DNA from: Akkermansia muciniphila
GTDB lineage: Bacteria > Verrucomicrobiota > Verrucomicrobiia > Limisphaerales > UBA1100
Direction of reading: 5' to 3'
Assembly: GCA_945903605.1 (NCBI GenBank)
Contig: CAMDOH010000004.1
Coordinates: 2,593 to 66,592, forward strand
Length of the DNA stretch: 64,000 bases
Part shown: positions 15,968-26,556 of the stretch, one piece after another
Layout: each line of letters opens with the position of its first letter
How positions within the stretch are numbered: the stretch's first letter is position 1
Notes under the pieces: model-generated
Told to the model about the DNA's origin: nothing
Database searches by the model: none
Seen by the model: only the letters and a program-made list of their open reading frames with translations
Made by a program: the position numbers and the translations under genes

Positions 15968-16151
15968 AGCGGTATTATCTAGCAAATCCAGTGCCAACGG
16001 CAAATTGTAATTATCCCAAAGAAATACACCTGTAGTCATTTGGCATTGAGCCAACATCACGCAATTCTCGCGTGAATTTGACGCGAAATTCGTCCTGATG
16101 GATTCCCAATCACAGTTGAATTCGTTTTCGGAATCGTTAGCCTTTCGCTCC

Positions 16152-17714
16152 ATGAGTTTTCAGGTCACTACAGAATCGGTCAACGTGCCATTGATTGGTG
16201 AACGCCGACGCGTCGATCCCTGTACCATCGTGATTTTTGGTGCCAGTGGCGACCTGACAGCCCGCAAACTCATTCCCGCTCTGTATCACTTGTTTGAATC
16301 AGGCCAGTTGCCGACTCCGTTCCGAGTGGTTGGTTTTGCTCGGCGCGAAAAGAGTCACGATTCCTGGCGGGAAGAATTGCGTGCAGCGCTTGAGCAATTG
16401 TCGCGAACGAAGTCTGTCGACGCTGCGGTGTGGCAGCGGTTCGCCGGCAACCTCTTTTATTGCAGCGGCGATTTCAATGATTCCGCAGCGTATGGTCGAT
16501 TGAAACTGTTGCTCGAAGGATTTGGCGACGAGTCCTTGAAGCAAAATCTGCTGCTGTATCTGGCCACCGGTCCGAGCCAGTTCGCAGTGGTTGCAGAAAA
16601 TGTTTTCCAAGTAGGACTCCTTCATAAATGGGAAGATGGAGCCGATCATTGGCAGCGGCTTGTCGTGGAGAAACCTTTCGGCCGCGATTTGCAATCCGCT
16701 CGCCTGCTGAACAACGATTTGACACGGCACATCCGCGAGCGACAAGTGCTCCGAATCGATCACTATCTCGGCAAGGAAACCGTCCAGAACATTCTTATGT
16801 TCCGATTCTCCAACGCCATTTTCGAGCGGCTTTGGCAGCGCGAGACTATCGACAACGTGCAAATCACGGTGAGCGAAAAACTCGGGGTCGGTTCGCGTGG
16901 CGGCTATTACGAGGAAGCGGGCGCACTTCGTGACATGCTGCAGAATCATTTGCTCCAGGTTCTTTCGCTCGTGGCGATGGAACCGCCGGTTTCTCTTGAA
17001 GCCGAAGCCATCCGAAATGAAAAGGTCAAGCTGCTGCAATCCATCCGCCCATTGCGACCCGAAGATGTCGCGCGCCAGGTTGTGCGCGGTCAATATTTCG
17101 CCGGTGCGATCGGCGGCGAGCCTCGCATCGGTTACCGGCAGGAAATCAAAGTGCGCCCCGATTCCAATGTGGAGACCTACGTGGCGGTGAATCTGTTCGT
17201 CGACAACTGGCGCTGGTCGGGTGTTCCATTTTATTTGCGCACGGGCAAGAGTCTCCCATTGAGTGCGAGCGAGGTTCGCATCGAATTCCGTCCCACGCCG
17301 CACGTGCTGTTTGCCGCGCGCGAAGAAGCTTCGATGATGCCCAACGTACTCACATTGCGTGTGCAGCCCAACGAGGGAATTTCACTCGCATTCAACGGCA
17401 AAGTACCCGGAACCAACAGCGCGCTGCGTCAGGTTCAAATGCAGTTCAACTACACTTCTGAATTTGGCGCTTACACTCCCGAGGCATATGAACGGCTTCT
17501 GCTCGAGGCGATGGCTGGCAATGCGACGTTGTTCATTCGTCGCGATGAAGTTGAGTCGGCATGGAAAATTGCCGATGCCATTCGCGAGGGTTGGGGAGCC
17601 AAGCCGTTGACCAATCGCGAATTTTATTCCGCAGGATCTTGGGGGCCTGTTGCAGCCGAAGATCTGCTGGCCCGTTCTGGTCATGCTTGGCACGACCCTC
17701 AGCCGAGCGTCTGA
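16152..17714 (+). CDS. zwf: Glucose-6-phosphate 1-dehydrogenase
   Basis: I prefer the ATG at 16152. Motifs present are [26 protein letters not shown] and EKPFG. Confidence 0.95.
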
Positions 17715-18424
17715 TGCCCTTGACCATTCATCGTTGCTCAAGGCCGCAAGAACTCGCGAGTGACGCCGCGCGCATGTGGCTTGACCTGTTGCGAATTCAT
17801 CCGCAGGGCAAAACTTTCACAGTCGCCCTTTCCGGTGGGCGCATTCCAAATTTGTTGTACGCAGCATTATTAGCATCCGATGAAAGACGATTGCTCGATC
17901 AAGTCGATTTCTTTTGGGGTGATGAGCGGTGCGTCCCGCCCAATCACGAAGAAAGTAATTACAAGCTGGCGGCCGAGAATCTATTGGTCCGGTTGCCATC
18001 GAGCAAGGAGAGGGTTCACAGATTGCGTGTCGAGCAAGGCGAAGAAATCGCGCTGGCGGAGGGAGAATCGGAACTGCGCCGGTCTGCAGATGAGAGTCCA
18101 TCGGGACAACCGATCTTCGATTTGATCCTGCTGGGGATGGGTGAAGATGGTCATGTCGCTTCCTTGTTTCCAAACGAGGACGAGTTGCTCGCTGGCAGTC
18201 CCGCAGTGTATCGCGCAGTGACGGGGCCGAAGCCGCCACCCCGCCGGATCACGCTCGGTTACGCGACCATTTCCAGTGCGCGGCGAGTGTGGGTGTTGGC
18301 GTCGGGTTCGGGCAAAGAAAATGCGCTTAGAAAATCCATTGCCGGTGATGGAAACACGCCACTGGCGCGAGTGCTGCGGTCGAGGGAGAACACGGACATT
18401 TTCACCGACATTGCACTGGCTTGA
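17714..18424 (+). CDS. pgl: 6-phosphogluconolactonase
   Basis: The ATG at 17714 overlaps the zwf stop (ATGA). The motifs ALSGGRIP, FWGDERCVP and LLGMGEDGHVASLFP are present. Confidence 0.9.
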   Translation: MPLTIHRCSRPQELASDAARMWLDLLRIHPQGKTFTVALSGGRIPNLLYAALLASDERRLLDQVDFFWGDERCVPPNHEESNYKLAAENLLVRLPSSKERVHRLRVEQGEEIALAEGESELRRSADESPSGQPIFDLILLGMGEDGHVASLFPNEDELLAGSPAVYRAVTGPKPPPRRITLGYATISSARRVWVLASGSGKENALRKSIAGDGNTPLARVLRSRENTDIFTDIALA

Positions 18425-18446
18425 TCGCGAGTAATGCGCTGGGTGA

Positions 18447-20054
18447 TCAGCGGCGGATGAGCTTGAGCGATTCGAGGTCGAACCAAGCCTCGCCTGTGCT
18501 GGAGATCAACTCGCAAACCAAGGAAACTTCCTGCATGCCGCCAACTGATATTTCGTATCGGAACGGTTGCCAGTCTTTCGAGCCGTCAATCTTCAGAGCG
18601 CGTTTTTGACCGGAGATTCGCAGGCCAGCGGCGGTGGAAAGATCGTCGGTTCCTTTGACATTGGCCGTGCGAACGCGGCCTTCAAAAAAGTAATTGCCCG
18701 GTGCGAGCAGTACATTTTTTCGCCACGAAACATTCGCTTCGCCCTCGACGCGAACATACAGTACGCCGCGTCCTTCAATCGAGCGTTTCGCATGAGTGGC
18801 GGTGCCGCTGACTATTTTGGGTTCCCAACCATTGGAAACGCGGGCTTGATTGTTATCGAACTTCAACGCGGCTGGCGGCGGTACGCCAAGCTGGTTTGCG
18901 ATCACATTGGCGCGCGCGGTGATGCGCTGTTTCAATCCTGCTGCATGACCGCGAAAATCACCGTGAGGCGCCAGTTTTTCCGCCATCTCGTCGATGCGTT
19001 CGCCGAGTATTTCAGGTCTGAAAACGTTGGTGTAAAGGCTGCCGACGACTTGCCGGTAGCGCGTTTTCCCCTCGGGCGTATTGAGGAGTTGGTTGGCCAC
19101 TGTGCCGCCGACGCCGCCAAATAAATTGAAGTTGGGATCGCCAAACATCTGGTCCATTCCCGAGGGCATCAAGTATGTCTTCTTCGCTACGGTGTCGGTG
19201 TAGATCCGATAATTGTTTCGGTTCTGACAGTAACCGTCCCAATGGGCCGTCATCAATTCGAGCGCGATGAATTTCAGGAAATGATCGATGTCGACGAGCG
19301 TGCTGATTTTCTCGAACCGCTTCTTCACATCGGGTTCATGGGCGGCCTGCCAAAGTGCTTTGAGTTCGGGTTGACCGAGATGGGGTGTGTTTGAAATCAC
19401 CTTCTTCTGGCCATCAAGATCCTGGCAAAATCCGCCATCGTACAAGATGCCATCGGGATTCTTGTAATGCCGCTTCACAAACGTGTGGTCAAATCCTTCG
19501 GTCAATGTGTAGAGGCCGAGGTTACGTCCGTTGAGGATGACGATGGCGTGGCTACCCCGACCCGCTGCAATTCCCGCATCGTTGAAGATGCTCCGACAAA
19601 TGGCTTCGTTGAGATAAGTGCCATCTTGAACAGAATTGTTCAGATGAATTTTATCCATGCCGTGGAAAACCTGGTTCTTGCGAAACTTGTCGAAGTTGAG
19701 CGAGAGCGCAGGCCGATCGTCCAATCCCCGGAAACTGCCGGCCGCTCCTTTAAGGTGCACGCCGACAAAATCGTAAACGCGCTTGTCATCCTCGCGCACG
19801 GTGCAGCGAACGTAGGCGCGGTTGTTCGCGCGCAGGTCATTCAAATCTTTGCCGGTAATCTCGATGACGATTTTCGGCACATGCCTCGCCGCAAAGAAGA
19901 TATCGCTCTCATCTGGTTTCGCGATTCCGATGGCGCCAGCGGCGAATGTCGAAAGGAGAAATGCAGTGGCCGTCGCTGCGCAGAGTGTGCGCATTTTATT
20001 CGGGCGCGTCGTTGTCATCACATTCAACATCGCCACAATCTTTCCAACTCGCAA
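18447..20054 (-). CDS. CotH kinase family protein, secreted, with a C-terminal beta-sandwich-like domain
   Basis: The maximal ORF starts at a TTG at 20054. In-frame ATGs at 20030, 20018 and 19994 precede the signal peptide MRTLCAATATAFLLSTFAAGA. CotH blocks seen are HLNNSVQDGTYLNEAICRSIFNDAGIAAGRGSHAIVILNGRNLGLYTLTEGFD and NNYRIYTD...PSGMDQMFG. Confidence 0.8.
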   Translation of the reverse strand: MRVGKIVAMLNVMTTTRPNKMRTLCAATATAFLLSTFAAGAIGIAKPDESDIFFAARHVPKIVIEITGKDLNDLRANNRAYVRCTVREDDKRVYDFVGVHLKGAAGSFRGLDDRPALSLNFDKFRKNQVFHGMDKIHLNNSVQDGTYLNEAICRSIFNDAGIAAGRGSHAIVILNGRNLGLYTLTEGFDHTFVKRHYKNPDGILYDGGFCQDLDGQKKVISNTPHLGQPELKALWQAAHEPDVKKRFEKISTLVDIDHFLKFIALELMTAHWDGYCQNRNNYRIYTDTVAKKTYLMPSGMDQMFGDPNFNLFGGVGGTVANQLLNTPEGKTRYRQVVGSLYTNVFRPEILGERIDEMAEKLAPHGDFRGHAAGLKQRITARANVIANQLGVPPPAALKFDNNQARVSNGWEPKIVSGTATHAKRSIEGRGVLYVRVEGEANVSWRKNVLLAPGNYFFEGRVRTANVKGTDDLSTAAGLRISGQKRALKIDGSKDWQPFRYEISVGGMQEVSLVCELISSTGEAWFDLESLKLIRR

Positions 20055-20057
20055 TGG

Positions 20058-20747
20058 TCAGAGTTCGGATTCGTCTTCAGCGCGGATGGTGGAGACTTGG
20101 GCCACTCCCTCCATGCCGTTCAATTCCGCCACCATTTCGGCGGCGCGATTCGGGTCTCGCATCAACAGTCGGTACGAGAGATCGGTTGCCTGATATCCAT
20201 CGTAACCCCGCTGGCTGGCAGTTTGAATCTTTCGTGCGTGCCGTCGGAGCAGCCCCATCAAGCCCGGCAGATCTTCGATCGGTCGTTGCCATTGCAGATT
20301 CACAATCAGGTCGTACCGATGCCGAGTGCCGAATCCACAGCTCCACAAATAGAACAGCACGGTCGCGACGGTCATCGTACCGATGAGCGCCGTGGAAAAT
20401 CGCTGTGTGCCGCAAGCCATGCCCACGACGATTCCAAGCAGCACGTAGGAAGTGTCCAATGTGTCGCGAAGGACGTTTCTGAATCGCACGATGGCGAACA
20501 CCGCCAACAGGCCAAACGCTGTGATCATGTTGTTCGCCAGCACCACCATCACCACCGAAACGATGATGGGTGTGACGACGAGCGAGTTCACGAACGAGCG
20601 GGAATAGGAAAGCCCTGTGTGCGTGAGCATGTACACCCAAGCGACCAGTTGGCCGAGCAGGAAGGAGAGCAGCATGCCGAGCAGCAAGGCCGACAAATTG
20701 ACTGGCGCGAGGGTGTGGTCGCCACGAAATAAGAACCATTCATTCAT
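20058..20747 (-). CDS. DUF4956-like integral membrane protein
   Basis: 229 aa. There are 4-5 TM helices, including the RFRN motif (AIVRFRNVLRDTLDTSYVL). The soluble C-terminal domain is ACT-like. The start overlaps the upstream VTC gene stop (ATGA). Confidence 0.7.
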   Translation of the reverse strand: MNEWFLFRGDHTLAPVNLSALLLGMLLSFLLGQLVAWVYMLTHTGLSYSRSFVNSLVVTPIIVSVVMVVLANNMITAFGLLAVFAIVRFRNVLRDTLDTSYVLLGIVVGMACGTQRFSTALIGTMTVATVLFYLWSCGFGTRHRYDLIVNLQWQRPIEDLPGLMGLLRRHARKIQTASQRGYDGYQATDLSYRLLMRDPNRAAEMVAELNGMEGVAQVSTIRAEDESEL

Positions 20748-21553
20748 GATAAAATCTCTTTAGGTTGGAGTAGTTGATCGAGTGAGCGTTGCCGCGCTTC
20801 AGCCGCCGGACTGAATGGAGCTTCACCGAGCGCTGTAAGGCCGTCCACATATTTCGCCGCTGAACATTGGCGGAAACCGTGGGCGCGCGCCAGTTCCGCG
20901 AACCACAACGGGAACCGCCCGGTGTATTTCAATTCGACCACGCAGAATTTGCCGAAGACGTGAATGGCGCGGCGCGGTGTCGTGTCCAGCGCGAGCGAAG
21001 AATGCGGGGCGCAAGTCACATTGCGATCGATGGTCACGCGCAGGCCATTGTTTTCCGGATGAATCCACGCCTCGCGCAAATAGGAGACGCGCGCTTTGGG
21101 TTGCAAACAGCGCTCTTTGGTGAGGCGTACAAATTGTCTCAGTGCGGCGACATGTTTGGGTTCGTTCAACACGAGCAAATCATCCGATGGCAATGCGCCG
21201 GCCATGACCAGCGCAACGGTCTCGCGTTTCACGGCTCCGCGTTGTTTGAGGATGGCGTCGTTCTGCCGACGCTTGATTTCAAAAAAAACTGGCGACCCCG
21301 GCAAATCGTCGTAATAGCGCAGCCGAAGTTTGAATCGGTTTTTGTTGCCGTTGACAGTCTCCCAGTACAATCCGAGTTGAGGCGAGTCGAGGTACAGGCT
21401 GTGGATGGGGTAGGAAAAATTCGGCTTGTTCAATCCGTTCGGGTCGAGTTTGAGAATGGAACTGACGAACTTGCGCACGCCTTCCGCCGTCCGTTCGGAG
21501 ACAAGGTACTTCAGCTCAAAGCGCTGGGTTTGCAACTGATCAGTAATCTTCAT
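20744..21553 (-). CDS. VTC-domain (polyphosphate polymerase / triphosphate-tunnel) protein
   Basis: 269 aa. The start QRFELKYLVSE..., then SLYLDSPQLGLYWETVNGNKNRFKLRLRYY and VELKYTG strands, resemble the Vtc4-type catalytic tunnel domain (PF09359-like). Confidence 0.7.
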   Translation of the reverse strand: MKITDQLQTQRFELKYLVSERTAEGVRKFVSSILKLDPNGLNKPNFSYPIHSLYLDSPQLGLYWETVNGNKNRFKLRLRYYDDLPGSPVFFEIKRRQNDAILKQRGAVKRETVALVMAGALPSDDLLVLNEPKHVAALRQFVRLTKERCLQPKARVSYLREAWIHPENNGLRVTIDRNVTCAPHSSLALDTTPRRAIHVFGKFCVVELKYTGRFPLWFAELARAHGFRQCSAAKYVDGLTALGEAPFSPAAEARQRSLDQLLQPKEILS

Positions 21554-21689
21554 CTATTAATTCAGAAACGCCGACGCAGCGACGAGATTCATCATTCAAT
21601 AAAAACTATCTCAACTGAGTTTAGAATCCACTTAATTTATATCGAACAAGCTTGTAATGACTTTTGCGTGCTCCTAAATTCTGCGCCCA

Positions 21690-22439
21690 ATGTCCGACGT
21701 ACTTGAACCCATTCCAACGCCACCAGGCCGATTAGTGCGCGACATCGTTCAGCGAGTCGTGCCGCCGCTCGTGTTCTTTCTGGTTTTCATTATCGTCATC
21801 AAACTTTGGACTGGGCGGATGGGGCCGACGACCATCCCTGTGGAAGTGGACACGATTAAAGCCGTGATCACTGCGCCGCAACCGGGACTTGTGTTGTCGA
21901 TGCGCGTGCGCGATTTGCAGGAAGTCGAGCAGAACGACATTCTTGGGCAAATCATTCTCGCCGACCAAAAGACCGTTGTTGAATTCAAGGCGCCGATGAA
22001 AGGGCGGGTCGGAATCTTGAACAAGGGCGCTGGCGAAACCGTTCAGGCGGGCGACGACTTGATGACCATCGCCGCGCCGAAAGCCGATCGCATGATCGGT
22101 TATCTGCGTCAGCCGATTTCCGTCGAGATTCAGACAAACCAATTCGTCAGCGTCCGCTCCCGCTCGCTCGGGCAACAAATGGGGACTGCGCGCATCACCA
22201 AGATTGGAACGGAATTATTGCCCATCCGGAAATCACTCCTGCCGACGGCACACGATCGCGATGAGGTGGGACTGCCAATTTTCTTCACCGTGCCGACAAA
22301 TCTCGTGCTCTATCCGGGTGAGATTGTGGACGTCACATTTCTACCGGTCGAACCACCGAAGGCATCGTCCGACGAAGTGCCGGGGAAACCTCCTGCCGGT
22401 ACAAACGCACCGGCGACCAACAAGCCCGCCGGCAAATAG
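21690..22439 (+). CDS. Membrane-anchored HlyD/barrel-sandwich-like protein (no coiled-coil hairpin)
   Basis: 249 aa with an N-terminal TM helix. A lipoyl-like hairpin is present (ITAPQPGLVLSMRV...FKAPMKGRVGILNKGAGETVQAGDDLMTIA). A beta-barrel-like segment and a Pro-rich tail follow. Confidence 0.55.
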   Translation: MSDVLEPIPTPPGRLVRDIVQRVVPPLVFFLVFIIVIKLWTGRMGPTTIPVEVDTIKAVITAPQPGLVLSMRVRDLQEVEQNDILGQIILADQKTVVEFKAPMKGRVGILNKGAGETVQAGDDLMTIAAPKADRMIGYLRQPISVEIQTNQFVSVRSRSLGQQMGTARITKIGTELLPIRKSLLPTAHDRDEVGLPIFFTVPTNLVLYPGEIVDVTFLPVEPPKASSDEVPGKPPAGTNAPATNKPAGK

Positions 22440-22450
22440 CAGTCGCCCTG

Positions 22451-25400
22451 TCACTTCATTTTTGTGATCCATTCCACGAGGAGTTGGATCCAATCCGCAT
22501 CAAGTCCTTGCGCGCCCACTGGGGGCATTTTGCCCACTCCCGTGCCGGCGATGCGCTGAAACATCACAGAATTTTCCACATGGCCTGGAGCGATGATGCG
22601 CGGATCGGGCAGGTTGTAATTATTGTGGATGGGCGGAACATTGATGGTGCGTGTCTTTGAAAGCAGAGTGCGGAACTCCAATTCCATCGCGGCATTGCCT
22701 CCGCCCGCTTCAACGTGGCAATGGCTGCAGTTGGCATGCAAGTAGGAGCGCACGCGCGCGGTGAGGTCCTGCGTGGCGTCGTACGGATTGACGAGTCGCC
22801 GCATGTTTTCCGGATTGCGCGGGAGGAACGACCGTGTCTCCGGCGATGAACGCTGGCCATTGACTTGGCCGATCTTATTCCAGGCGGCGTCGATGTCGGC
22901 CGTCCCCTTCGCAGTTTGTTCCTCGCCGAACCGTTCGCGTTCATAACTTTTCCAGTCACCTCGGAAGACACCGAGTTTTTCCAGCACTTCAAGTTGGTTG
23001 GCTTTGTAGCCGCCGTAATCGTGTTCCTTGTTGAACTGCCATTCATTGAATCCGAGAGCGTAAATGGCGGCGCGGCTATGGCAGACCATGCAATCGGCTC
23101 GCGAGGGAATGCGCCACGGAGTGCGTTGTGGGTTGCCTGCGGCGTCGGCGAGCATGAGTTCGCGGTCTGCTCCCGCCTTGTCCACGAGAGTGGCATCGGT
23201 TTGCGCGGCGTTCCATTCATACGAATAACCCGCCCATTCATTTTGTTGTTTTGCGAGAATGCGCGATTCGATGCGTCGTGATTTGCCGCCAGAGGGCAGG
23301 CTGAGTGTTTGAAGAATCACGGTGCCTTCGGGAAGGTTCCAGCCACGGAAATGTGTGAATTCGATGAGGCCGTTGGTGCCCGGTGGCAATGCCAGATATT
23401 GCTCCTTCGTGGCACCATCGACCCAGTGCGGTGCGTTGACAGAGTACGGAATGAGCGCTGGTTGCAGCTGGTGATCGGCCACGGAAGTGAAGAGGCCCGT
23501 CTCGCTCAACTTGCGCGGGAATTTGGCCGTGTCCGATTTCTCGGTGTTCGGGCGCAGATAATGGAAACCACTGTTGTCGTCGATGACGAGCAGGTTTCCG
23601 CGTGTGTCTTGACCGAATCCAGTGATGGCAAAAGGCGTGTCGACCAATTCACGGTGTTGGAGAAGTTTTTTTCCGTCGTGGAGCGCGCCCCAAATCTTGC
23701 CGGTGGAATAATCGCCATAGGTGTAATGGCCGTTCAAATCGGGCAGGTTTTTCCCGTAGTAAACAACGCCGCCCGTCAGAGAGCGCGACTCGGAATGATT
23801 ATGTTCAAGCGTCGGTTTGGTGAGTTTGCCCGGCCCGAGTTTGCGGTTCTCGTAGAAAGGGTGGCTGCCCTCGTACACGCTCCATCCGTAGTTCGCGCCA
23901 CGTTCGACCTGCTTTACCGATTCCCAAAGATCCTGTCCATTTTCGCCGACCCAGATTTGGCCGGTCTTCGCATCGCAAGTGATTCGCCATGGATTGCGGA
24001 AGCCGTGCGCCCAAGTTTCCGGCCGGGCATTGGGAGTATCGAGAAACGGATTATCCTTCGGCACGCTGTAGAATTTTCCCGTCGGCGGGTTGTCGACATC
24101 AATGCGCAACACTTTGGAGAGTAATAAATCGATGCGCTGGCCGGTCACATTCGTATCCGAATCGCTCGTGCCATCGCCGGAAGTGATGTAGAGCATTCCG
24201 TCATTCCCGAAAATGGCGTCGGCACCGTTGTGTCCGTCCGATTCCCATTCGATAATGAGCTGGCGCGATTGGGGGGCGACCGTGTACGGCTCCTTCCGAT
24301 CCATCGTCCATCGCGTGACACGCGTGTGTTTTTTTCCATTCGCACCCGCTCCATTGCCGGCGATGTAGATGTGCCCATTCGCATCAAACTTCGGATGAAA
24401 AGCCATTCCGTACGAAAGTTCGTTGGTGAGAGCGAGTGCCAGTTTTTTCTGTGTGACGCCGGGGTCATCCTTGAAAATCCAGAATTGGCTGGAACCTGAT
24501 GGCGACGCGCGGTCGATGTAAACCAGATGATCTGTGCCGGGCAACTGGCGCAGCAACATGGCGTTTTTGATTTCCAATTTTGGAAACGCACGTTCAGTTT
24601 TATAGGGCGAGGGAGGCTCGGGTGAGCCGGCGATTTTTGATGTCGTCAGTGGCAGTCGTCGCAACGGGCCTGCGGCACCGATTTGTTGGCCGACGAATTT
24701 GATCGGCGCGTAATTTTCGTGTTGGTGATAATCCACGCGCGAGAGCGGCGCGGTTGTCGAGAGGTCGGGGTTTTCCCATTCCACAGAATAGTCGTATCGG
24801 CAGAGAGCAAACCGCCACTCTTCGTTGGTGGCGGGGCGTCCGCCAGTCGGCATAAAATCGCGCCACGGTATTCGACCTTCGACAGACCAACCCGTGTCGC
24901 GGTCCCGCCATTGATTGAGCGTGCCGCGATGAACGACTTTCGATTCGATGTGAAACTCCTGATCGTTGCGGAGGCGATCCACGAGCCACGAGGCGCGTCG
25001 CGGCAGAAACAGATCGAACTGCGTATTGGCGGCGTTGACCTGAAATTCATAATAGCCGGGCTTGTCCAATGCGGGCTTGAAGAACAATTCGAACACATCG
25101 TTGTTCCATGTGTTGCCGTCTTTGGTGGTGATGTCGGCGTAGAGATCGCGGTCCTCCATCTCGGCGTGGAAATAGAGAAACTCGCGATCCCAAAGCAGGC
25201 GTGCGGTGGTGCGAGTTTTCGCGGGTGGAGAATTGGTGGCCCATGGAGCGAGGAACCGAGTGATTGTCTGCGCGTTTTTCCAGGCGGGTTCGTCAGCATT
25301 GCCGTCCACAGTGATGCGGCCTTCGGCCCAACGACATTCGACGGCAGGCGGCAAGACAAGTGGTTTGGCGGGTGCTGGCTCCGTTTTCGCCGCTGGCTTC

Positions 25401-25519
25401 GGCTTCTTTTCGTCCACCGATTCGCAGGCGGTGATCAAGAAAACAGCTGCGGCGATAACGGCGAGGGTGGAAGTGGCGGTCGAGAAATAGTGGGGTGGAG
25501 TCGTACGAGATGATCTCAT
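22451..25519 (-). CDS. Multidomain lipoprotein: CBM9/DOMON-like + PQQ-dependent sugar dehydrogenase beta-propeller + cytochrome c-like domains
   Basis: I prefer the ATG at 25519, which gives the signal STLAVIAAAVFLITAC. The CBM9-like block is DGNADEPAWKNA...LLWDREFLYF. The SGDH-like blocks are HNGADAIFGNDGMLYITSGDG and WAHGFRNPWRITCDAKTGQIWVGENGQD...GANYGWS. The heme motifs are CMVCH and CSHCH. Confidence 0.8.
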   Translation of the reverse strand: MRSSRTTPPHYFSTATSTLAVIAAAVFLITACESVDEKKPKPAAKTEPAPAKPLVLPPAVECRWAEGRITVDGNADEPAWKNAQTITRFLAPWATNSPPAKTRTTARLLWDREFLYFHAEMEDRDLYADITTKDGNTWNNDVFELFFKPALDKPGYYEFQVNAANTQFDLFLPRRASWLVDRLRNDQEFHIESKVVHRGTLNQWRDRDTGWSVEGRIPWRDFMPTGGRPATNEEWRFALCRYDYSVEWENPDLSTTAPLSRVDYHQHENYAPIKFVGQQIGAAGPLRRLPLTTSKIAGSPEPPSPYKTERAFPKLEIKNAMLLRQLPGTDHLVYIDRASPSGSSQFWIFKDDPGVTQKKLALALTNELSYGMAFHPKFDANGHIYIAGNGAGANGKKHTRVTRWTMDRKEPYTVAPQSRQLIIEWESDGHNGADAIFGNDGMLYITSGDGTSDSDTNVTGQRIDLLLSKVLRIDVDNPPTGKFYSVPKDNPFLDTPNARPETWAHGFRNPWRITCDAKTGQIWVGENGQDLWESVKQVERGANYGWSVYEGSHPFYENRKLGPGKLTKPTLEHNHSESRSLTGGVVYYGKNLPDLNGHYTYGDYSTGKIWGALHDGKKLLQHRELVDTPFAITGFGQDTRGNLLVIDDNSGFHYLRPNTEKSDTAKFPRKLSETGLFTSVADHQLQPALIPYSVNAPHWVDGATKEQYLALPPGTNGLIEFTHFRGWNLPEGTVILQTLSLPSGGKSRRIESRILAKQQNEWAGYSYEWNAAQTDATLVDKAGADRELMLADAAGNPQRTPWRIPSRADCMVCHSRAAIYALGFNEWQFNKEHDYGGYKANQLEVLEKLGVFRGDWKSYERERFGEEQTAKGTADIDAAWNKIGQVNGQRSSPETRSFLPRNPENMRRLVNPYDATQDLTARVRSYLHANCSHCHVEAGGGNAAMELEFRTLLSKTRTINVPPIHNNYNLPDPRIIAPGHVENSVMFQRIAGTGVGKMPPVGAQGLDADWIQLLVEWITKMK

Positions 25520-25644
25520 GGAGTGCGCGAATTCTACGAGGCTGCGGCGCGGGCAGCAATCCCATTCGCGTGAGAGTGAAGTGTGTGGCACAACGCTTTC
25601 ACTTGCGTCCATCGGCAGGGGACATATCTTCAGCCGAACCCGAT

Positions 25645-26556
25645 ATGAAAAAGCCGATTCACTTCGCATTGTTTCCACTATTATTTGTAGCCTGCGTGTC
25701 TCCGACGGGGAGCGATTCAAAGGATGTGTTGTACAAGGCGCGTCCGCACACACCGCCCAAATCATTCACGCCCGGTATCGAAGGGCCGGGATGCGACAAG
25801 GCTGGGAATGTTTACGCCGTCAATTTTGCCAGGCAACAGACCATCGGCAAAACTGCGCCGAACGGGAAGTCGGAGGTCTTCGTTGTGTTGCCCGGAAAAA
25901 GCACTGGCAACGGCATCGTGTTCGATCCAGCCGGTTGGATGTACGTGGCCGATTATGTCGGGCACAACGTCCTGCGAGTGGACATGAAGACGAAAGTAGT
26001 GGAGGTGTACGCTCATAATCCGGCGATGAATCAGCCCAACGATCTGACCATTGCGCCCGACGGAACATTATTTGCGAGCGATCCGAATTGGGGAAACAAC
26101 ACCGGCCAACTCTGGCGCATCGACCCCAATGGATTGACCACGCGCTTGGCGGAGAACATGGGAACGACCAATGGCATCGAAGTCAGTCCCGATGGCCGCA
26201 CGTTGTACGTCAATGAAAGCAGACAGCTCAATCTTTGGGCCTTCGATATCACGGCCGAAAAGACCCTCGCTAACAAGCGGCTGCTGCGAAAATTTGAGGA
26301 TCACGGATTCGACGGGATGCGCTGCGACGTCGCAGGCAACCTGTATATCACGCGGTACGGAAAAGGAGTTGTGGCCGTGGTTTCGCCGAAGGGAGAATTG
26401 CTGCGCGAGATTGATGTGCTCGGCAAACAGCCATCGAACATTTGTTTTGGCGGGCCAGATGGGCGTACCGTTTATGTCACCGAAGTCGAACACGCCCGTC
26501 TGGTTTCATTCCGCGTCGAGACGCCCGGACTCGCTTGGAAACGCTGGCAGAAGTGA
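25645..26556 (+). CDS. SMP-30/gluconolactonase/LRE family lipoprotein
   Basis: I prefer the ATG at 25645, which gives MKKPIHFALFPLLFVACVS. Six-bladed propeller blocks include PNDLTIAPDGTLFASDP, TNGIEVSPDGRTLYV and PSNICFGGPDGRTVYVT. Confidence 0.85.
   Translation: MKKPIHFALFPLLFVACVSPTGSDSKDVLYKARPHTPPKSFTPGIEGPGCDKAGNVYAVNFARQQTIGKTAPNGKSEVFVVLPGKSTGNGIVFDPAGWMYVADYVGHNVLRVDMKTKVVEVYAHNPAMNQPNDLTIAPDGTLFASDPNWGNNTGQLWRIDPNGLTTRLAENMGTTNGIEVSPDGRTLYVNESRQLNLWAFDITAEKTLANKRLLRKFEDHGFDGMRCDVAGNLYITRYGKGVVAVVSPKGELLREIDVLGKQPSNICFGGPDGRTVYVTEVEHARLVSFRVETPGLAWKRWQK

Follow-up and report, generated by a model that had tools for sequence, protein, structure and literature searches.

The four genes and their products

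We analysed a 64,000-nucleotide (nt) stretch of contig CAMDOH010000004.1 (assembly GCA_945903605.1; hereafter the window), in which a VTC-domain protein, related to the catalytic domain of the yeast polyphosphate (polyP) polymerase Vtc4, is encoded next to a DUF4956 membrane protein and a CotH-family protein. A sequence-only reading of the window had described three minus-strand genes with an ATGA overlap at the first junction. Both the open reading frames (ORFs) and the sequence agree with this description, the ATGA at 20744-20747 being the stop codon of the VTC gene and the start codon of the DUF4956 gene. That reading had overlooked a fourth gene of the module, coding for a HlyD-like adaptor. 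The locus is a four-gene envelope module (VTC, DUF4956, HlyD-like adaptor and CotH) and not a trio (Table 1), and its nearest named relatives are Pedosphaera-like Verrucomicrobiota.

Table 1. Genes, domains and intergenic region of the module in the window
Feature	Position	Strand	Extent	Remarks
VTC protein	20744-21553	minus	269 aa	stand-alone, predicted cytoplasmic; putative polyphosphate polymerase
DUF4956 inner-membrane protein	20058-20747	minus	229 aa	start overlaps VTC stop
CotH	18447-20054	minus	535 aa	counted from TTG start
CotH signal-peptide-like N-terminus	19920-20030	minus	aa 1-37	
CotH kinase-fold domain	18876-19910	minus	aa ~41-385	
CotH C-terminal CBM-like (carbohydrate-binding module-like) beta-sandwich	18447-18848	minus	aa ~395-527	includes stop codon
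HlyD-like adaptor, short form	21690-22439	plus	249 aa	divergent from VTC
Intergenic region VTC/HlyD-like	21554-21689		136 nt	AT-rich; candidate shared promoter/regulatory region

In public annotations of three identical metagenome contigs, CotH begins with the ATG at 20030, which gives a protein of 527 aa. Depending on the start, the gap between DUF4956 and CotH is 3 nt (TTG), 27 nt (ATG at 20030) or 63 nt (next in-frame ATG at 19994, counted manually). The Pfam families assigned from the sequence were all recovered above their gathering cut-offs: PF09359 for VTC (137 versus 23 bits), PF16316 for DUF4956 (45.6 versus 30.6 bits, a partial match to profile positions 17-107 of 169) and PF08757 for CotH (117.8 versus 23.8 bits). 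NCBIfam had no model for the VTC, DUF4956 or CotH protein. The GC content of the intergenic region between VTC and the adaptor is 0.382, compared to 0.553 for the whole window, and a scan of 17500-23000 gave nothing usable as a sigma-70 consensus promoter, a terminator consensus or an Rfam element.

Residues 11-241 of the VTC protein align to positions 2-233 of the 235 of PF09359, which is the whole domain. The profile of this family, which comprises 4,662 clusters at 50% identity (E <= 0.001), matched the Vtc4 catalytic domain (3g3q) over the full domain length with an E-value of 3e-18. We aligned 60 diverse bacterial sequences and observed that E13, R77, R79, K94, R160 and D176 are invariant, that Y158, E207, K209 and K234 are kept in at least 90% of them, and that K15 is the majority residue at its position. 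Cryo-electron microscopy of the yeast enzyme has shown that K200, R264, R266, K281, Y359, R361, S457 and K458 of Vtc4 bind triphosphate and that E426 binds Mn2+; mutating these nine residues lowers polyP in yeast (bioRxiv 10.1101/2023.01.27.525886). R264A/R266A/E426N is the standard inactive VTC mutant. In our own mapping, read from HMMER alignments, eight of the nine are conserved: K200, R264, R266, K281, Y359, R361, E426 and K458 correspond to K15, R77, R79, K94, Y158, R160, E207 and K234 of the window protein. K458, which is retained as K234, is the Vtc4-specific Lys and the sole one of the nine that is changed in the inactive Vtc2 (Ile) and Vtc3 (Leu) (bioRxiv 10.1101/2023.01.27.525886). 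Pfam and hydrophobicity analyses revealed no hydrophobic segment, SPX domain or Vtc-type membrane domain in the protein. Judged from these alignments, VTC is a credible Vtc4-type catalytic domain and a putative polymerase. Two giant VTC-containing 'fusions' (P0222, 4352 aa; P0248, 2278 aa) were dropped as fusion evidence, as they resemble run-together gene calls in which VTC stands beside unrelated domains (GlnD, Rce1-like, CofD and TPR) (labels of the form Lnnn and Pnnnn denote loci and proteins of this analysis).

The AlphaFold (AF2) model of the DUF4956 protein (predicted local distance difference test score, pLDDT, 80) predicts five transmembrane (TM) helices, at residues 18-42, 50-69, 74-88, 96-113 and 117-136, consistent with the four to five expected from the sequence. 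These are followed by a C-terminal beta-alpha-beta-beta-alpha-beta domain (residues 147-222). In Foldseek searches against the PDB, solely this C-terminal domain found matches, to ACT domains (such as IlvN and Rel ACT; target-normalised TM-score up to ~0.69), and a sequence search of the PDB returned noise alone. The most conserved stretch of the protein is F84-D98, with the invariant motif FAIVRFRNxLRDTxD. The same motif (IVRFRTAIKDxxD / IVRFRxxx[KR]DxxD) is found in Gram-positive proteins annotated at NCBI as DUF4956, including those of Planococcus and Pseudobutyrivibrio. From the positive-inside rule, we infer that the Arg-rich loop and the ACT-like domain of the model face the cytoplasm, on the side of VTC. 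Two possible homologies were rejected. With Vtc1 there was no sequence or fold match, and with MgtC (PF02308) the score was 10.9 bits against a cut-off of 31.4 bits (E = 0.61). DUF4956 is rarely mentioned in the literature that we searched, and we found no biochemistry on it there. A DUF4956 gene and a DUF2490 gene form a co-regulated pair (BT3498-BT3499) in an iron-response data set of Bacteroides thetaiotaomicron (PMC10434189); DUF2490 could be a different diderm partner of DUF4956.

The adaptor of the window matched HlyD_3 (31 bits, cut-off 22.2) and Biotin_lipoyl (29.2 bits) in Pfam. It consists of an N-terminal TM anchor (hydrophobic segment at ~aa 16-46), a lipoyl-like domain, a beta-barrel domain and a Pro/Ala/Thr-rich tail. 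It is 38% identical (E = 2e-21) to the ~360-aa product of the third gene in the VTC-DUF4956 operons of relatives, and a long-form relative scored 37.4 bits for HlyD_3 and 36.1 bits for HlyD_D23 (cut-off 30). When the two forms were aligned, the short adaptors of the window and its closest relatives were found to be without a charged, helical segment of ~140 residues (~98-235 in L006) and to have gained the Pro/Ala/Thr-rich tail. We read the missing segment, from its sequence, as the alpha-helical hairpin that is inserted in the lipoyl domain. In known pumps, the hairpin of HlyD-family proteins contacts the outer-membrane channel.

For CotH, the sequence-only reading had proposed a signal peptide and an extra C-terminal beta-sandwich of ~130 aa, and both find support. 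By inspection of the sequence, the N-terminus is signal-peptide-like, with a basic n-region, a hydrophobic core of ~20 aa (aa 16-37) and an AXA-like site. The structural model (pLDDT 87.7; below 50 for residues 1-36, which are disordered) has an all-beta domain of ~130 aa at ~395-527. The model matched Bacillus cereus CotH (5jda) in Foldseek with an E-value of 2.8e-19 and a target-normalised TM-score of 0.79 over 370 columns. Its C-terminal domain matched the hyaluronan-binding 4d0q (E = 1e-7), CBM4-2 (1k42), CBM61 (2xom), a porphyran CBM (8xmz) and CBM16/6/22/35, and the CotH family profile matched residues 25-163 of 8ag9, the N-terminal module of an endoglucanase (E = 2.9e-6).

In Bacillus subtilis CotH, D228 is catalytic and D251 essential, the D251A mutant being inactive (PMC7821199). 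The catalytic-loop Asp equivalent to D228 is D265 in the window protein, and it is shared without exception by 40 subfamily members and by the aligned CotHs of B. cereus and Gram-positive bacteria. We assigned the D251 position, which belongs to the metal-binding motif, from its 23-residue spacing from D228 and from PMC7821199. In sequence and profile alignments, this position is taken by an invariant Gly (G291), and an invariant Asp (D293) follows two residues on. The motif of the window protein is SGMD, where B. cereus CotH and the VTC-linked CotHs of Gram-positive bacteria have WDx[D/N]. Because of this Gly, kinase activity of CotH is not to be assumed; the family, the fold and the D228-equivalent Asp agree with the earlier view of CotH as a kinase, and the D251 position, as assigned, departs from the canonical motif. 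We describe the protein as a probable Sec-exported, kinase-fold protein with a CBM-like module and putative kinase activity.

Conservation and surroundings of the module

For VTC synteny, one genome per GTDB species was scanned. Close VTC relatives were found in 248 genomes, of which 80 loci were analysed, and their neighbours were identified by phmmer searches of the window proteins against six-frame ORFs. The genome scan alignment (A3) returned Verrucomicrobiota-type loci alone, and cross-phylum synteny was taken from plasmid records and the literature. We observed the following. DUF4956 lies directly downstream of VTC in 73 of the 78 loci with room for it, and the two genes overlap by 4 nt in the loci where genes were called, forming a tight pair with translational coupling. 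The HlyD-like gene adjoins in 62 of 69 loci, downstream in 59 and divergent upstream in three, which are the nearest relatives of the window. Clustering of all neighbours of the 80 loci gave no further recurrent family, and CotH adjoins VTC in just one of them. What is conserved in Verrucomicrobiota is the VTC-DUF4956-adaptor cassette, which is complete in itself and lies in varying surroundings, and CotH is a lineage-specific addition. The proposed co-occurrence of VTC, DUF4956 and CotH was borne out for the first two and, as linkage across phyla (see below), for VTC and CotH; the regular third partner is the HlyD-like protein.

A count from the CotH side gave a similar result. Among 80 metagenomic CotH loci, VTC-DUF4956 was near CotH in three, in three different arrangements (divergent in L116, 3 kb apart in L119 and co-linear in L147). 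These counts rule out CotH as an obligate third partner. The CotH architecture (515-600 aa, matching the full query) is widespread and was found in Verrucomicrobiota, Gemmataceae, Armatimonadota and Binatia. In ~11 of the 80 loci, as well as in a Gemmataceae genome, CotH stands in a Sulfatase-CotH-Sulfotransferase_3 triad (L088 491-4891, L096, L097, L098, L101, L105, L107 and L117; partly L103, L135 and L150), which suggests a sulfated-glycan context as another workplace of this subfamily. An ABC exporter (ABC_membrane plus ABC_tran) adjoins CotH at L089 4379-8749, L114 5644-9620 and L112 1986-5650, and at these loci secreted CotH is accompanied by a membrane export device of a second type. 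At L089, from Armatimonadota, VTC precedes the exporter and CotH follows it; no VTC was detected at L114.

Among the closest relatives of the window CotH, an 83%-identical lineage (L175) has the same locus as the window. Two lineages at ~55% identity (L177 2211-9319; P0274) keep the short adaptor, VTC, DUF4956 and CotH, with overlapping DUF4956 and CotH frames. In these lineages PhoX, an alkaline phosphatase, is encoded upstream of the module and a member of the Sulfatase/Phosphodiest family downstream of it, which hints at a link to the periplasmic phosphate economy. Since the gene order is kept at both 83% and ~55% CotH identity, with differing flanks in the latter, the arrangement is more than chance. 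In two other close relatives, CotH is found alone at an unlinked site, and one of these assemblies also holds a VTC-DUF4956-adaptor locus without CotH.

Linkage of VTC to CotH was also found outside these genomes. A tblastn search of plasmid records gave five VTC genes from Actinomycetota and Bacillota (Nonomuraea, Paenibacillus, Enterococcus, Planococcus and Pseudobutyrivibrio). DUF4956 is next to VTC in all five, and an annotated CotH kinase family protein adjoins in two (Planococcus and Pseudobutyrivibrio), within glycosyltransferase-rich clusters. The order in Planococcus (VTC, DUF4956, CotH, a 689-aa protein, a HEAT-repeat protein and a glycosyltransferase) is that of NELoc-2 of Clostridium perfringens, in which a VTC-membrane protein-CotH cluster has been described (PMC2879425). 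Whitfield et al. described cotH, a poly-phosphate polymerase gene and a DUF4956 gene that directly adjoin the pel operons of Gram-positive bacteria and were regarded as accessory to them (bioRxiv 10.1101/768473). In Streptococcus intermedius these are SIR_1594-1592 (mBio 2025, PMC12345266). Deletion of SIR_1592 (DUF4956-type) or SIR_1594 (CotH) shifts Pel levels and lowers aggregation, and the membrane protein is described as TM segments, read as MgtC-like, with an ACT domain (PMC12345266). The trio has thus been described before, as an accessory module that is uncharacterised, and the sequence-only statement that its function is not experimentally established agrees with the literature that we searched. 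VTC-CotH linkage recurs across phyla, in at least five arrangements and four phyla.

The three-gene synteny has been stated to be absent outside pel loci (PMC12345266). The window and the plasmid loci are counterexamples. No pel or glycosyltransferase families were found within +-10 kb of the module, and the 64-kb window gave no homologues of the genes that accompany the trio in Gram-positive bacteria (GT2, GT4, HEAT-repeat and 689-aa proteins). A classification of the cluster with the Pel accessory modules was rejected on these grounds.

Some additional observations were made on the surroundings of the module. The plus-strand genes zwf (glucose-6-phosphate dehydrogenase) and pgl (6-phosphogluconolactonase), at 16098-18424, run towards the 3' end of CotH. 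Both are common housekeeping genes whose adjacency to the module is not kept in other lineages. On the other side, a minus-strand gene at 22451-25765 codes for a protein of 1053-1104 aa with a CBM9-like part, a beta-propeller of the glucose/sorbosone dehydrogenase type and a weak match to cytochrome c. It is also a neighbour of the module in the 83% lineage (L175) and not in more distant lineages. In a Methylacidimicrobium metagenome-assembled genome (MAG), a second, more divergent VTC (L035 6157-6969, minus strand) lies on the opposite strand ~2.5 kb downstream of the cassette VTC. Verrucomicrobiota-type VTC cassettes also occur in MAGs titled for unrelated taxa, namely Akkermansia muciniphila (L007, L011, L016 and L027), Bifidobacterium sp. 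(L060), Lysobacteraceae (L081) and Methylomirabilota (L013); these titles are probably binning or labelling errors.

A proposed mechanism and its alternatives

The data described above strongly support the notion that VTC and DUF4956 cooperate at the inner membrane and, in the diderm Verrucomicrobiota, do so also with the periplasmic adaptor. We propose that this core is a polyphosphate synthase/exporter with CotH as a lineage-specific periplasmic accessory, and we put the probability of this reading at roughly 0.4. At the cytoplasmic face, VTC would build a phosphate polymer from a nucleoside triphosphate, and the polyanionic product would be passed to a DUF4956 oligomer and released on the periplasmic side. 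Such a system would parallel the yeast VTC complex in function and be built from unrelated membrane parts. In the lineage of the window, the adaptor, which is full length in most Verrucomicrobiota, has lost its helical hairpin and moved upstream, and a probable Sec-exported CotH-CBM protein has been acquired as the last gene of the operon. CotH may sit on an envelope or extracellular glycan, and it may use the exported polymer as phosphoryl donor in a compartment free of ATP or modify its target together with the polymer. That the adaptor is without the hairpin and that a secreted CotH-CBM protein has joined the operon suggest delivery into the periplasm. Synthesis-coupled export of a phosphate polymer is the most economical mechanism. 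Gene order and coupling, domain identities, retention of the Vtc4 catalytic residues, synteny counts and folds are observed here, and from these we infer polyphosphate synthesis, export via DUF4956 and any chemical link to CotH. A more specific version appears quite improbable to us. In it, a diderm envelope machine of a Vtc4-like polymerase, a DUF4956 pore and the adaptor would make polyP at the inner membrane and thread it to the periplasm or further out, the polymer would serve in the lineage of the window as phosphoryl donor for a glycan-docked CotH, and the altered metal-binding motif (G291/D293) could reflect the change of donor.

Several observations weigh against the synthase/exporter reading. 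The ninth Vtc4 residue, S457, is A233 in the window VTC. At the position of T198 in Vtc4, the bacterial VTC proteins invariably have Glu (E13, in the motif 'FELK'), and as a sequence motif this is closer to the metal-binding motif of hydrolytic tunnel enzymes. No biochemical assay of any bacterial VTC protein was found in the literature searched. The channel role of DUF4956 is putative: neither sequence nor Foldseek comparison matched it to the yeast Vtc1/3/4 channel (chains of 7ytj and 8i6v), and Foldseek found neither a similar PDB fold nor a solved transporter for its membrane part. The sequence-only proposal of a bacterial analogue of the yeast translocase is reduced by this to a functional analogy at most. 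No outer-membrane factor linked to the cassette recurs around the 80 loci, an unlinked partner being possible. The two synteny counts, the unlinked CotH copies of close relatives and the Gly at the D251 position count against the CotH part of this reading. Finally, deletion of the S. intermedius VTC gene had no phenotype of the kind caused by the other two deletions, and of the DUF4956 and CotH deletions one raised Pel and the other lowered it (PMC12345266); such phenotypes are not those expected of a simple linear pathway.

The FELK motif and the Thr of Vtc4 at this position also bear on a different function of the core, in which VTC is a tunnel phosphohydrolase that acts as the cytoplasmic energy-coupling or gating subunit of a new type of tripartite transporter (VTC, DUF4956 and the HlyD-like protein; similar in layout to MacAB- or HlyBD-type pumps) for some other substrate, for instance an exopolymer or a peptide, and CotH is related to the cargo or unrelated. 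The three-part layout, kept in 62 of 69 loci, and the position of the Gram-positive pair within polysaccharide-synthesis clusters are consistent with such a transporter. However, the residues that bind triphosphate and the chain in Vtc4 are kept, including the K458 that is lost in the non-polymerising Vtc2/3. The Armatimonadota VTC stands beside a complete ABC exporter, which argues that VTC is no mere substitute ATPase, and DUF4956 has no known transporter fold. We regard the phosphohydrolase as unlikely. We hold it to be likewise unlikely that VTC-DUF4956 makes or regulates intracellular polyP and exports nothing, be it in membrane-anchored granules or in phosphate/ATP homeostasis through an MgtC-like, ACT-regulated protein, with the HlyD-like protein and CotH as separate matters. 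In favour of an intracellular role, ACT-like domains typically serve regulation by small molecules, PhoX adjoins the module in two lineages, which points to the phosphate economy, and the S. intermedius VTC deletion left aggregation unaffected. The resemblance to MgtC, also noted for the membrane part of the S. intermedius protein (PMC12345266), is marginal in our search and far below the cut-off, though. A membrane-fusion-type protein as third operon gene, downstream in 59 of 69 loci, is hard to square with a cytoplasmic process, and the pair is found repeatedly with secreted CotH and exopolysaccharide genes.

Whether CotH belongs to the mechanism is a separate question, as a passenger would be compatible with any reading of the core. 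CotH would then be a secreted enzyme or adhesin that associates with glycans and may be a pseudokinase, inserted downstream of VTC-DUF4956 in one Pedosphaera-like lineage and acting independently of the core. Its rarity at VTC loci and that of VTC at CotH loci (1/80 and 3/80) would be explained, as would the invariant Gly and the closest relatives that carry CotH alone elsewhere, or between a sulfatase and a sulfotransferase. On the other hand, the four-gene module is kept at ~55% identity in another context with overlapping DUF4956/CotH frames, VTC-CotH linkage recurs in the arrangements and phyla listed above, and the three linked cases among 80 loci compare with ~0.2 expected for random genes (a rough estimate). 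A passenger role is in our view somewhat unlikely, and we retain the synthase/exporter with CotH as its accessory as the working model.

Significance and comparison with known systems

New in the present analysis are the HlyD-like fourth component, the recognition of VTC-DUF4956-adaptor as the conserved cassette of a diderm phylum, the residue-level likeness to active Vtc4, the CBM on CotH together with its variant motif, and the occurrence of the module outside polysaccharide loci. A working bacterial Vtc4-type polymerase, if true, would be a route beside PPK1/PPK2, the enzymes credited with bacterial polyP synthesis in the literature that we read. Its coupling to DUF4956 and a HlyD-like adaptor, if true, would be a new type of envelope export system and a source of periplasmic or surface polyP. 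CotH as a user of polyP, if true, would answer how a kinase works in a compartment without ATP. The recurrent link of this system to secreted CotH proteins and to exopolysaccharide loci suggests an unrecognised phosphate modification of the cell surface or biofilm matrix, which would extend to necrotic-enteritis strains of C. perfringens and to S. intermedius. Ready targets for mutants are K15, R77/R79/E207 and K234 in VTC, and D265 and D293 in CotH.

Compared to the yeast VTC complex (Vtc4/Vtc3/Vtc1; 7ytj, 8i6v and 3g3q), the module has a homologous catalytic domain and a cytoplasmic tunnel enzyme tied to a membrane component, in the window by genetic linkage. Unlike the yeast complex, it is without an SPX sensor and without the fused Vtc-type three-TM domain that forms the pentameric channel. 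Its membrane partner is an unrelated five-TM plus ACT protein and a HlyD-like adaptor is added, and its VTC, of putative activity, differs by the T198 to Glu and S457 to Ala replacements.

The Gram-positive pel accessory genes and NELoc-2 have the same three families adjacent, a CotH with an export signal and an extra C-terminal domain, and a DUF4956 protein with TM segments and an ACT-like domain. The window differs from the pel accessory genes in its diderm host, the HlyD-like fourth gene and the lack of adjacent pel genes. The C-terminal domain of S. intermedius CotH is FN3 (PMC12345266), whereas that of the window CotH is CBM-like, and the Gram-positive CotH motif WDxD contrasts with SGMD in the window.

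With Bacillus CotH (5jd9/5jda), the window CotH shares the Pfam family, the fold and the D228-equivalent Asp. In contrast to the Bacillus protein, which is located in the mother cell, it is predicted to be exported, carries the CBM-like domain and has Gly at the D251 position. The host phylum is not known to form spores, and SKR-repeat coat substrates are hence not involved.

An operon with an anchored lipoyl/beta-barrel adaptor, a membrane protein and a cytoplasmic nucleoside-triphosphate-binding protein is also the plan of the MacAB-TolC and HlyBD-TolC exporters. In the window, however, DUF4956 and VTC take the place of the ABC, RND or MFS parts, no outer-membrane factor is linked and the adaptor is without the helical hairpin. 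The PPKs have folds and mechanisms unrelated to VTC, and they are cytoplasmic and uncoupled from any membrane or periplasmic apparatus. What the module would have in common with PPK1 and PPK2, the prokaryotic polyphosphate enzymes (bioRxiv 10.1101/2023.01.27.525886), is its product, which is likewise proposed to be polyphosphate derived from a nucleoside triphosphate.

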